64,000 nt of DNA, from the NCBI RefSeq assembly GCF_054482525.1, contig NZ_CM137006.1. One strand, given 5' to 3'. The notes beneath the pieces were generated by a model. It did no database searches, was not told the DNA's origin, and saw nothing but the letters and a program-made list of their open reading frames with translations. The position numbers were made by a program, and so were the translations under genes. Below are positions 15,136 to 54,075 of the stretch, piece after piece. How positions within the stretch are numbered: the first letter of the stretch is position 1; the number at the start of each line of letters is the position of its first letter.

Positions 15136-15300
15136 AAAGAAAAAGGCAGCCTGTGGTTGCCTTTTGCCAATAATTCGCACACATTGCGGGTTACTGCTTT
15201 ATTTTCGTTCAGTGCTGATAACGAACATCAACCTGCAAAACGAAGCGCATAGTTTAAAATGGCTATCATCAATACGCTATATCTGATGGAAAAAAATATG
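15136..15300 (-). ncRNA. sraB: Candidate small RNA SraB (boundaries approximate)
   Basis: Intrinsic terminator (GGCAACC-ACA-GGCUGCC then UUUUUCUUU on minus strand, + coords about 15134..15161) sits about 36 nt upstream of yceD start; SraB reported in the yceF-yceD intergenic region (recalled); 5' end not determined. Confidence 0.4.
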
Positions 15301-15882
15301 CCTAAACTTATTTTAGCCTCCACCTCGCCCTGGCGTCGCGCTCTTCTGGAAAAACTGCAAATCTCTTTTGAATGTGCAGCACCCGAGGTCGACGAAACTC
15401 CACACAGCGACGAATCACCGCGACAGTTGGTGCTTCGACTGGCACAAGAAAAAGCGCAATCTCTGGCGTCACGTTATCCGGATCATTTAATTATTGGTTC
15501 AGACCAGGTATGTGTTCTTGATGGCGAAATCACCGGTAAACCGTTAACGGAAGAAAATGCCCGTCTGCAATTACGCAAAGCCAGCGGCAATATCGTCACC
15601 TTCTATACTGGACTGGCGTTGTTTAATTCGGCGAATGGGCATCTGCAAACAGAAGTGGAGCCTTTTGACGTCCATTTCCGTCACCTGAGCGAGGCGGAGA
15701 TTGATAATTACGTGCGTAAAGAGCATCCCCTGCACTGCGCGGGTAGCTTTAAGAGTGAAGGATTTGGCATTACGCTGTTTGAGCGTTTAGAGGGGCGTGA
15801 TCCTAACACGCTGGTTGGTTTACCGCTAATCGCGCTGTGTCAGATGTTACGTCGGGAAGGGAAAAACCCGCTGATGGGATAG
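15298..15882 (+). CDS. yceF: Maf-like nucleoside triphosphate pyrophosphatase
   Basis: ORF track 207 aa; start moved to [14 protein letters not shown] (194 aa). Confidence 0.88.
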
Positions 15883-17164: not shown

Positions 17165-17525
17165 GTTTCCGTGTCCATCCTTGTTAAAACAAGAAATTTT
17201 ACGGAATAACCCATTTTGCCCGACCGATCATCCACGCAGCAATGGCGTAAGACGTATTGATCTTTCAGGCAGTTAGCGGGCTGCGGGTTGCAGTCCTTAC
17301 CGGTAGATGGAAATATTTCTGGAGAGTAATACCCAGTCTGTTTCTTTGATAATTGCGCTGTTTTTCCGCATGAAAAACGGGCAACCGACACTCTGCGCCT
17401 CTTTGAGCTGACGATAACCGTGAGGTTGGCGACGCGACTAGACACGAGGCCATCGGTTCACACCCGGAAAGGCGTTACTTTGCCCGCAGCTTAGTCGTCA
17501 ATGTAAGAATAATGAGTAAGTTACG
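17165..17525 (+). promoter_or_regulatory. rne long structured 5' leader (RNase E autoregulation); 5' boundary approximate
   Basis: 572-bp non-coding gap upstream of rne; the roughly 360-nt autoregulatory leader is established knowledge; TSS not determined from sequence. Confidence 0.5.
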
Positions 17526-39143: not shown

Positions 39144-39248
39144 TCACGAGGGCGCATTCGCGCCCTTTATTTTTCGTGCAAAGGAAAACGTTTCCGCTTA
39201 TCCTTTGTGTCCGGCAAAAACATCCCTTCAGCCGGAGCATAGAGATTA

Positions 39249-40295
39249 ATGACTGCACCATCCCAGGTATTAAAGATCCGCCGCCCAGACGACTGGCACC
39301 TTCACCTCCGCGATGGCGACATGTTAAAAACTGTCGTGCCGTATACCAGCGAAATTTATGGACGGGCTATCGTAATGCCCAATCTGGCTCCGCCCGTGAC
39401 CAGCGTTGGGGCCGCCGTGGCGTATCGCCAGCGTATTCTTGACGCCGTACCTGCCGGGCACGATTTCACCCCGCTGATGACCTGTTATTTGACAGATTCA
39501 CTAGACCCTAATGAGCTAGAGCGCGGATTTAACGAAGGCGTGTTCACCGCTGCAAAACTTTACCCGGCAAACGCAACTACTAACTCAAGTCACGGCGTGA
39601 CGTCAGTTGACGCAATCATGCCGGTACTTGAGCGCATGGAAAAAATCGGTATGCCGTTACTGGTGCATGGTGAAGTGACACATGCAGATATCGACATTTT
39701 TGATCGTGAAGCACGCTTTATAGAAAGCGTGATGGAACCGCTGCGCCAGCGCCTGACTGCGCTGAAAGTCGTTTTTGAGCACATCACCACCAAAGATGCT
39801 GCCGACTATGTCCGTAACGGAAATGAACGGCTGGCTGCCACCATCACTCCGCAGCATCTGATGTTTAACCGCAACCATATGCTGGTTGGTGGCGTGCGTC
39901 CACATCTGTATTGTCTACCCATCCTCAAACGCAATATTCACCAACAGGCATTGCGTGAACTGGTCGCCAGCGGTTTTAATCGCGTATTCCTCGGTACGGA
40001 TTCTGCGCCGCATGCACGTCATCGCAAAGAGAGCAGCTGCGGCTGCGCGGGCTGCTTCAACGCCCCAACCGCGCTGGGCAGTTACGCTACCGTCTTTGAA
40101 GAGATGAATGCTCTGCAGCACTTTGAAGCATTCTGTTCTGTAAACGGCCCGCAGTTCTATGGCTTGCCGGTCAACGACACATTCATCGAACTGGTCCGCG
40201 AAGAACAACAGGTTGCTGCAAGCATCGCACTGACTGATGACACACTGGTGCCATTCCTCGCCGGGGAAACGGTACGCTGGTCCGTTAAACAATAA
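39249..40295 (+). CDS. pyrC: Dihydroorotase
   Basis: ORF track 348 aa; HxH metal-binding motif (DWHLHLRD). Confidence 0.95.
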
Positions 40296-40329
40296 AAATC
40301 GTAGCTTCCTGTTGTCATTAGGTTATTTT

Positions 40330-40349
40330 ACCTGTATAAATAACCAGTA
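40330..40349 (+). promoter_or_regulatory. LexA (SOS) box of dinI
   Basis: ACCTGTATAAATAACCAGTA read directly about 20 nt upstream of dinI start; CTGT-N8-ACAG-like palindrome matching LexA consensus. Confidence 0.8.
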
Positions 40350-40368
40350 TATTCAACAGGGGGCTATT

Positions 40369-40614
40369 ATGCGAATTGAAGTCACCATAGCGAAAACTTC
40401 TCCATTGCCAGCTGGGGCTATTGACGCCCTGGCTGGCGAACTTTCCCGCCGTATTCAGTATGCGTTTCCTGATAATGAAGGCCACGTATCGGTACGTTAT
40501 GCCGCAGCGAATAATTTATCGGTTATTGGCGCAACAAAAGAAGATAAACAGCGCATTAGCGAAATTCTCCAGGAAACGTGGGAAAGCGCCGATGACTGGT
40601 TTGTCAGCGAATAA
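40369..40614 (+). CDS. dinI: DNA damage-inducible protein I
   Basis: ORF track 125 aa; start moved to MRIEVTIAKTSPLPAGAI (81 aa). Confidence 0.9.
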   Translation: MRIEVTIAKTSPLPAGAIDALAGELSRRIQYAFPDNEGHVSVRYAAANNLSVIGATKEDKQRISEILQETWESADDWFVSE

Positions 40615-40903
40615 TATGCAGTGATTTTTGTTTTTGCCGGGTCGCCCCGGCTTTTTTATTTTACTTACAAATTTTGAGTACAAAATTTCTACACTTCCTC
40701 AAAATAATTGCACAATATGCTAAAAAAATATGAATGACATGCTGTTTTATTGTTCATATAAATCTTAAAAGCAAAAATTTATCTGTTCCCCCCTTTAAAA
40801 ATTCGGTGAATACCCTTACTTATTGGTATACTGAAGTTGCTTCAGATAAAAACGCATTGAACCTCGAATAACGTTGTCTAGTAACACGAATTAGGGGGCC
40901 ATG

Positions 40904-48344: not shown

Positions 48345-48442
48345 GCCAGATGTGGCGTGAACGCCTTATCCGACCTACAAAATCTTGCAAAATCAACACA
48401 TTGCAGGAGCGATGTAGGCCTGATAAGCGTAGCGCATCAGGC
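48345..48442. repeat. REP/BIME cluster (two REP units)
   Basis: GCCAGATGTGGCGTGAACGCCTTATCCGACCTAC and GTAGGCCTGATAAGCGTAGCGCATCAGGC read between yceK and opgH. Confidence 0.75.
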
Positions 48443-52635: not shown

Positions 52636-52917
52636 TCAGCACGCTGGCTCATGGATTAAGCACCTGATTGCAACCGTTTTCACTTTCCGTGCTTCTCCTA
52701 AAGACAGAAGCATCGACTTCGTGTAGGGTTTGCCAGCAAATTTATTTATCAACCGTCTTACAGACGCTTCCATTCTGGTTAGTGGTAGCGATGATGCTAT
52801 GCATAAAAACCTTGAAGCCTGCGCCTGGCGCGGTCAGGTCGGTGTCGCTATGGCAACAAGCCTAAAGGCATAACCCGACAGGGATAAGACGAAAAATCCG
52901 AGATTAGTTAACCATAT

Positions 52918-54075
52918 ATGAATCCAGTACCCGCGCAACGTGAATATTTCCTCGACTCCATCCGCGCCTGGCTGATGTTGTTAGGGATCCCTTTTCATAT
53001 TTCTTTAATCTATTCGAGCCATACATGGCATGTGAATAGCGCCGAACCGTCATTGTGGCTGACCCTTTTTAATGACTTCATCCACTCGTTCCGCATGCAG
53101 GTATTTTTCGTTATATCCGGGTACTTTTCCTACATGCTTTTTTTACGCTATCCCTTGAAAAAATGGTGGAAAGTACGTGTCGAACGTGTAGGTATCCCGA
53201 TGTTAACAGCCATCCCCCTACTGACATTACCGCAATTTATTATGCTGCAATACGTCAAAGGGAAAGCGGAAAGTTGGCCTGGACTGTCATTGTATGACAA
53301 ATATAATACGTTGGCCTGGGAATTAATATCACACCTGTGGTTTTTACTGGTGTTAGTGGTCATGACGACGCTGTGCGTCTGGATATTCAAACGTATCAGA
53401 AATAATTTAGAAAATTCTGATAAAACGAATAAAAAATTCTCGATGGTAAAACTATCGGTGATTTTTTTGTGCCTCGGCATCGGTTATGCGGTAATAAGAA
53501 GAACAATTTTTATTGTGTATCCGCCCATTCTGAGTAACGGCATGTTCAATTTTATTGTCATGCAAACGCTATTTTATTTGCCGTTCTTTATCCTCGGCGC
53601 ACTGGCTTTCATTTTCCCTCATCTTAAAGCCTTGTTTACCACGCCGTCTCGTGGCTGTACCTTCGCAGCAGCATTGGCATTTGTCGCTTACTTACTCAAC
53701 CAGCGCTATGGCAGTGGCGATGCCTGGATGTACGAAACCGAGTCTGTGATCACCATGGTCCTCGGTCTGTGGATGGTGAATGTGGTCTTCTCCTTCGGCC
53801 ACCGTTTGCTTAACTTCCAGTCAGCGCGGGTGACTTACTTTGTTAATGCATCGCTGTTTATCTATCTGGTTCACCACCCGTTAACGCTGTTTTTCGGCGC
53901 GTACATTACACCGCACATCACCTCCAACTGGCTTGGTTTTCTCTGTGGCCTGATATTCGTAGTAGGGATTGCGATAATTCTGTATGAAATTCATTTACGC
54001 ATCCCGTTACTGAAGTTTTTGTTCTCTGGTAAACCGGTTGTTAAGCGTGAGAACGATAAAGCACCAGCCCGTTAA
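52918..54075 (+). CDS. opgC: OPG succinyltransferase (acyltransferase-3 family membrane protein)
   Basis: ORF track 385 aa; divergent from opgGH. Confidence 0.88.

Follow-up and report, generated by a model that had tools for sequence, protein, structure and literature searches.

Does the short palindrome in front of the dinI gene act as its LexA operator, and is it the only element of the pyrC-dinI junction that might bind the synthesis of DinI to the SOS response? The first part of this question can be answered with confidence: we put at about 0.96 the probability that positions 40330-40349 serve chromosomal dinI of E. coli as its LexA operator. This assignment is already established and not new, being textbook knowledge of the SOS regulon, and the box itself changes nothing in that picture; its confirmation mainly shows that real operators are recognisable from sequence alone. 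The new observation is confined to a conserved hairpin around the operator, and it is this structure that makes the second part of the question worth asking.

The window, i.e. the whole stretch of 64,000 nucleotides that was analysed (contig NZ_CM137006.1 of RefSeq assembly GCF_054482525.1), carries the following elements at this locus:

39249-40295, + strand: pyrC (dihydroorotase), co-directional with dinI and upstream of it
40369-40614, + strand: dinI coding sequence, ATG at 40369, 81 amino acids plus stop (open reading frame, Pfam match and RefSeq annotation)
40636-40661, + strand: intrinsic terminator of dinI found by the terminator scan, GCCGGG-TCGC-CCCGGC followed by TTTTTTATTT

The sequence-only reading had named the gene downstream of the palindrome dinI, and this identification was correct. 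Its product matches the Pfam DinI profile PF06183 over positions 1-63 of 63 with 102.1 bits (E=2.1e-29), above the curated cut-off of 24.2 for membership of the family, and the gene is annotated as dinI in identical E. coli genomes. The genes of the neighbourhood follow the order pyrC-dinI-bssS-solA. A 501-bp segment around the box matches many E. coli chromosomes at 100% identity, with pyrC and dinI as the annotated genes, and the region is present in 5425 of the 5426 complete E. coli genomes; judged by identity, annotation and presence together, we are dealing with the dinI locus of the E. coli chromosome. The terminator scan found no terminator-like site between the end of pyrC and dinI (40295-40369).

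Elsewhere in the window, a copy of IS1 occupies positions 56788-57555 (InsA at 56842-57117, with the InsB frame running to 57539) and interrupts csgC, the curli chaperone gene. The insertion is flanked by direct repeats, CTCTGCATAG, whose distance of 777 bp fits a target-site duplication, and it is missing from the otherwise colinear strain 1190. There are also five Rfam matches, none of them surprising in this part of the E. coli chromosome, each at the gathering score:

39199-39248: pyrC leader (RF02372)
17165-17501: rne 5' UTR element
15136-15304, - strand: SraB sRNA
59293-59384: ES056 sRNA
48379-48421: ES036 (CssrF) sRNA

The palindrome was evaluated by its exact sequence, its heterology index, window shuffles and conservation:

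40330-40349, no strand assigned: LexA (SOS) box, the dinI operator, 20-mer ACCTGTATAAATAACCAGTA

Both the sequence and the coordinates of the box had been given exactly by the sequence-only reading, and its estimate that the box lies about 20 nt upstream of the dinI start agrees with the measured gap of 19 nt (box end at 40349, ATG at 40369). As is typical of LexA operators, ACCTGTATAAATAACCAGTA is a 20-bp imperfect palindrome with an AT-rich centre. The core had been described as CTGT-N8-ACAG-like with an AT-rich centre; the left half and the centre are indeed so, but the right half is CCAG and not ACAG, which makes the core CTGT-N8-CCAG.

The loose core itself is of little help in judging the site. 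With at most one mismatch, CTGT-N8-ACAG occurs 16 times in the window versus 19.4 +/- 4.5 expected matches, i.e. at chance frequency, and therefore it cannot carry a statistical argument. A scan of the window with the 20-nt LexA consensus at up to 3 mismatches returned no match, because the dinI site has 4.

The Berg-von Hippel heterology index (HI) was used instead, with a count matrix built from 17 published E. coli boxes, dinI being left out of the full set of 18 (PMC3009722, Table 4, which lists LexA boxes upstream of UV-induced E. coli genes). In this leave-one-out scoring the dinI box has an HI of 4.95 (6.81 with a symmetrised matrix), which ranks it 6th to 7th among the 18 known boxes and makes it the best-scoring site of the 64 kb on either strand. 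When the window was shuffled 1000 times with its dinucleotides preserved, an HI of 4.95 or lower was reached just once, and the analytic expectation at this value is 0.0016 sites per window, or 0.12 per 4.9-Mb genome. The penalties are due mainly to C at position 2 (2.2 units), followed by the A residues at positions 1 (1.1) and 10 (0.94); the C at position 15, which turns the right half into CCAG and is shared with 7 of the 17 training boxes, costs only 0.57 units.

Published lists of LexA sites use HI cut-offs of about 14-15, and the dinI box falls within the range of LexA-binding sites so defined. The same 20-mer is listed for dinI among the boxes found by MEME upstream of UV-induced genes (PMC3009722, Table 4), and the published index for dinI is 4.8 (Courcelle 2001, quoted in PMC11228462). 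The formal scoring that had been suggested alongside the first reading, with a high index as the result that would speak against it, thus yields a low index in both hands, and at these values the site ranks among the stronger SOS boxes by HI.

The next independent LexA-like sites in the window were considered and rejected. They start at 52910 (HI 10.87) and 6590 (HI 11.18), and an HI of 10.87 or lower was reached by 338 of the 1000 shuffles. The former (52910-52929, AACCATATATGAATCCAGTA) overlaps the start codon of mdoC/opgC (52918) and is missing the left CTG, whereas the latter (6590-6609) lies inside tmk; both are at chance level, with about 0.7 such sites expected per window.

Within the species, the 52-nt segment from the operator to the ATG is identical in 4626 of the 5426 complete E. 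coli genomes. About 770 of the 5426 carry 1-2 base differences in this segment. In the one variant inspected, strain EC476, the change is T40348C at box position 19, which gives CAGCA, as in other functional boxes, among them those of lexA, ruvA and cho.

Conservation beyond E. coli was followed in 80 dinI loci from different Enterobacteriaceae species, collected in one scan of representative genomes (73-99% protein identity), in every one of which the C-terminus of PyrC is encoded upstream. All 80 have a box with an HI of 0.9-5.8 upstream of dinI. The distance from box to ATG is 18-21 nt in 76 species and exactly 19 nt in 65, and the four apparent exceptions (two Trabulsiella and two Buttiauxella) retain a box that has been moved by insertions. 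The information content of the alignment columns averages 1.73 bits in the box, 1.65 in the ribosome binding site (RBS) and 1.48 in the -35 element, versus 0.38 in the spacer between -35 and box. The operator, its distance to the ATG and the -35 (consensus TTGTAA or TTGTCA) are thus held fixed across the 80 species while the intervening spacer drifts.

The insertions deserve a separate remark. In Buttiauxella gaviniae and B. brennerae, about 125 nt separate the LexA box from the dinI Shine-Dalgarno sequence (SD), and the inserted segment of about 120 nt resembles an ERIC-type enterobacterial repeat (…GAGCTTACATAGGTAAGTGA…GTGAGTGAACGCAGCCAAC…CTTGAAGTATGACGGGT…). In the two Trabulsiella loci, GGGGG is set apart from the ATG by an insertion of about 40 nt. 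All four loci have kept the LexA box as well as both arms of the hairpin described below.

Two further features of the orthologous boxes were noted. The Escherichia box is among the weakest of them (HI 4.95 versus a median of 2.61), with C at position 2 accounting for 2.2 units. Moreover, box position 10 is an A in nearly every orthologue, giving TATAAA and not the TATATA of the LexA consensus; this base improves the match to a -10 element at a cost of 0.94 HI units. Such near-universal use of TATAAA, despite the HI cost, fits a double constraint, and the alignment suggests that the central bases serve both as operator and as -10.

The paralogues of phages were compared as well. Eight phage genes of the DinI family, with 35-47% identity, were sampled; in six of them a box of HI 1.5-5.4 lies 13-45 nt upstream, and the remaining two directly follow another short ORF. 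The dinI paralogues of phage mEp460 and of a Stx2c-converting phage carry two tandem LexA boxes each (HI 2.7-5.8), 13 and 41 nt from the ATG; chromosomal dinI has a single box.

How the box is placed relative to the promoter depends on the following predicted signals:

40312-40317, + strand: predicted -35 element TTGTCA, the best sigma-70 match in the intergenic region in a relaxed scan
40335-40340, + strand: predicted -10 element TATAAA, inside the LexA box (box positions 6-11)
40347 (40346-40348), + strand: approximate transcription start site (TSS) predicted from the -10 spacing, giving a 5' UTR of about 22 nt
40359-40363, + strand: dinI SD, GGGGG, 5 nt before the ATG and outside the box

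The standard promoter scan found no + strand promoter at dinI, because it demanded T at the sixth position of the -10, and TTGTCA-17 nt-TATAAA was recovered as the best predicted promoter, with 10 of 12 matches, in a relaxed rescan. The mapped start is elsewhere: in the TSS-seq data of Kim et al. 2012, obtained from undamaged cells, 13 reads give dinI a 38-nt 5' UTR, which corresponds to 40331, the second base of the box and 16 nt upstream of the predicted start. A good -10 is missing in front of 40331, and conservation is lowest in just the segment that would have to contain it (0.38 bits). We take the start at 40331 to be a minor one or one used in the LexA-repressed state, but it could also be a processed 5' end. 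As it disagrees with the predicted start, the assignment of TTGTCA and TATAAA as the promoter remains a prediction and is not settled. Both starts, however, lie within the LexA box.

The same holds for Klebsiella dinI, where the LexA box overlaps a TSS mapped by dRNA-seq and primer extension (PMC10907235). The predicted -10, the start mapped in E. coli and that of Klebsiella are thus all inside the box, the position expected of an operator, and LexA bound over the -10 should keep RNA polymerase out. The sequence-only reading had let the box overlap the promoter and RBS; this stands for the predicted -10 and TSS, but not for the RBS, which starts 10 nt past the end of the box.

The mode of action of the operator would be as follows. 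A LexA dimer would bind the CTG and CAG half-sites of 40330-40349, and, with the -10 and the transcription start contained in the box, bound LexA would exclude RNA polymerase from the dinI promoter, presumably by steric occlusion. Upon DNA damage, the RecA-stimulated self-cleavage of LexA would free the promoter, and the resulting short-leader dinI mRNA would give rise to DinI, which modulates RecA filaments. In this scheme the exact -10, the TSS and repression by steric occlusion are inferred by us; damage induction, lexA dependence and the LexA occupancy of the Klebsiella orthologue are taken from the literature.

That literature is consistent. The dinI gene was induced 49-fold by AZT and reduced 39-fold in lexA3 (PMC11228462), its induction by UV ranks with the most prominent ones (PMC3009722), and it has been listed with the genes having a known SOS box (PMC6590174). 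At the dinI promoter of Klebsiella the LexA ChIP signal drops after mitomycin C (PMC10907235). The claim that dinI is under SOS control is hence well borne out by the low HI, the presence of the box in 80 of 80 species and the published lexA-dependent induction, and the absence of SOS induction, which would have spoken against it, is contradicted by the published responses to both AZT and UV. It is very improbable that the box is a chance AT-rich promoter sequence conserved through its -10 element only and without LexA binding: the loose core motif does occur at chance frequency in the window and the central TATAAA is a plausible -10 that would be conserved anyway, but CTG and CAG, which lie outside the -10 hexamer, are among the invariant columns, a full-site HI of 4.95 is expected just 0.0016 times per window, the response is 39-fold dependent on lexA3 (PMC11228462), LexA ChIP is positive at the Klebsiella orthologue (PMC10907235), and phage paralogues with unrelated promoters also carry LexA boxes.

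We now turn to the sequences on both sides of the operator, which are predicted to pair in RNA:

40301-40314, + strand: left arm of the hairpin (RNA fold), GTAGCTTCCTGTTG, starting 6 nt past the pyrC stop and overlapping the first bases of the -35
40354-40367, + strand: right arm of the hairpin (RNA fold), CAACAGGGGGCTAT, containing the dinI SD and ending 2 nt before the ATG

The arms form a predicted 14-bp stem, with an inner stem between 40321-40328 and 40338-40345. RNA folding of positions 40280-40368 gave -26.7 kcal/mol (z=-4.59), a stability attained by 0 of 200 shuffles. The -10, the operator and both candidate TSSs are in the loop of about 39 nt, and consequently both arms would be present together only in RNA arriving from pyrC. 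No Rfam family covers 40296-40368, and no description of the hairpin or of the pyrC-dinI junction was found in the searchable literature.

One reading of this arrangement is that the hairpin formed in read-through RNA buries the dinI SD, so that dinI would be translated only from transcripts of the LexA-controlled promoter and would be insulated from pyrC transcription. This would be an additional layer of control, not exclusive of the operator explanation. We consider it possible and put it forward tentatively, on the basis of the stability of the predicted fold, the appearance of a comparable stem in the individual minimum free energy folds of nearly all 79 distinct orthologous sequences, and the position of pyrC, which lies upstream in 80 of 80 loci and is separated from dinI by a gap with no predicted terminator. 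The GC-rich GCCCCC located just upstream of the -35 also speaks for it, being unexplained by promoter function.

Modelling of the SD points in the same direction. In E. coli, the unpaired probability of the SD is predicted to be 0.002 in the read-through RNA versus 0.30 and 0.48 in transcripts starting at 40331 and 40347, respectively; over 76 species the corresponding means are 0.09 versus 0.38 and 0.43, with the difference in the same direction in 72 of the 76. Certain features argue against the proposed insulation, i.e. an internal mismatch of the stem in many Citrobacter and Escherichia sequences, as well as the pattern of variation in the arms, which is considered next.

The complementarity of the arms might also be coincidental, if the -35 region with the block upstream of it and the G-rich SD were constrained independently of each other. 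The arms do coincide with the two conserved blocks flanking the operator (consensus GCCCCCTGT ... ACAGGGGGC), and their core columns barely vary, so that the pairing signal is mostly one of conservation: the core pairs are conserved and not covarying, and the covariation score in the fixed register, reached by 12 of 500 shuffles, is no more than suggestive. In a structure-free alignment, 72.5% of the cells were paired in the E. coli register versus 70.5% in shuffled data, a value reached by 0 of 500 shuffles, and RNAalifold, run on this unbiased alignment, found no consensus structure. The conserved core and the RNAalifold result weigh against insulation and in favour of coincidence, as does, for the latter, the behaviour of the phage paralogues, in which the complementarity between arm and SD is not shared (p of about 0.02-0.03 in two of six, the others not); their lack of the feature assigns it to the pyrC-dinI junction.

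The outer 3-5 pairs of the stem, on the other hand, vary by lineage and yet remain complementary (TAGC/GCTA, TGGCC/GGCCA, AATGC/GCATT, ATTGC/GCAAT, AACG/CGTT, GGTT/AACC and, in CwR94, GCCTC/GGAGGC), which is not what coincidence would predict. The duplex of cognate arms has a mean energy of -19.7 kcal/mol versus -8.2 for shuffled left arms. When the arms of 20 haplotypes of the spacer between SD and ATG were mixed and matched, cognate combinations averaged -19.41 versus -17.90 +/- 0.37 for swapped ones, and only 2 of 20000 permutations matched the cognate value; as the haplotype groups are phylogenetically non-independent, this is suggestive of insulation, and speaks against coincidence, without being proof. 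Finally, owing to G.U pairs the + strand forms the more stable stem in 52 of 77 species, and the C-to-T changes in the left arm keep G.U pairing on the + strand only. Taking both sides together, coincidence appears rather unlikely to us, and we lean towards the view that the hairpin is a selected RNA structure.

A selected structure could, instead or in addition, serve the pyrC mRNA, as a 3'-end structure acting as an atypical terminator or as a barrier to 3' exonucleases. The hairpin begins 6 nt past the pyrC stop codon and is preceded by an A-rich run, and no other strong structure lies ahead of dinI. It is also retained in Trabulsiella, where the insertion of about 40 nt between GGGGG and ATG has moved it from the start codon; that the arms are kept there points to a role beyond the SD alone, and so counts against insulation. 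However, the stem is not followed by a U-tract (CUAUUAUGCG), its loop of about 39 nt has a promoter inside, and no mapped 3' end was found, the 3'-end tables of Adams 2021 and the supplements of Conway 2014 being uninformative for the end of pyrC. We therefore regard a role at the pyrC 3' end as improbable. An intrinsic (Rho-independent) terminator of pyrC was considered separately and rejected, as the scan of 40295-40369 gave no match and the stem, with its loop of about 39 nt, is followed by CUAUUAUG.

With regard to known systems, the operator is that of E. coli K-12 dinI (Lewis 1994, Fernandez de Henestrosa 2000 and Courcelle 2001; cited in PMC6590174 and PMC11228462). The 20-mer, the gene and the neighbourhood are identical, with no difference in the box, and the window represents another E. 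coli strain with the same locus.

The dinI gene of Salmonella enterica and the dinI copies of its prophages Gifsy-1/2/3 are similar in having a single strong box with an HI of about 4 to 5.3, located 19 nt from the ATG, and in being strongly induced by DNA damage, in this case by nalidixic acid (PMC8072944). When the Gifsy-2 box was rescored with our matrix, it gave an HI of 1.75 with the same 19-nt gap. Salmonella dinI differs by a second, very weak box (HI 17.6) located 42 nt from the ATG (PMC8072944); a second LexA box of this kind was sought in the window, and nothing better than HI 19.15 was present at the corresponding position. The Gifsy copies differ in protein sequence (about 47% identity) and in genomic context.

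In Klebsiella pneumoniae, the box in front of dinI (TACTGTATAAATAACCAGTA) shares 18 of 20 bases with that of E. coli, and the gene order pyrC-dinI-bssS-solA is the same (PMC10907235). Klebsiella differs by a lineage-specific insert in the dinI 3' UTR, which gives rise to the Hfq-dependent sRNA DinR, with a seed region reported to be Klebsiella-specific (PMC10907235). In E. coli dinI, the terminator stem starts 21 nt after the stop codon.

For the hairpin, the closest parallel in architecture is found in a mobile element. In IS10, as Davis, Simons and Kleckner are said to have reported in 1985, translation of the transposase is subject to fold-back inhibition in transcripts that enter from outside. 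The likeness of the dinI region is one of layout: the gene's own promoter is enclosed by an inverted repeat whose 5' arm lies upstream of it and whose 3' arm extends over the SD, which leaves read-through RNA as the only RNA able to form the occluding hairpin. By analogy, the SOS dependence of DinI might be enforced at two levels, by LexA at the promoter and by an IS10-style block of translation through fold-back, a possibility which we likewise raise only tentatively. Unlike IS10, this would concern a chromosomal SOS gene placed after a housekeeping gene, with a function inferred from predicted folds, and it is a matter of resemblance and not of membership. If true, such insulation would be a clean chromosomal example of a dosage-sensitive SOS gene shielded from a housekeeping neighbour that has no terminator.

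A second parallel lies in the same gene pair, at the other end of pyrC. Translation from the pyrC leader is set by whether the 5' end of the transcript includes a segment that pairs with the SD, and nucleotide pools decide which of several closely spaced start sites, a few nucleotides from one another, is used. What the dinI hairpin would share with it, by analogy, is the occlusion of the SD in dependence on the transcription start; in contrast to the pyrC leader, the hairpin would discriminate between the transcripts of two different promoters.
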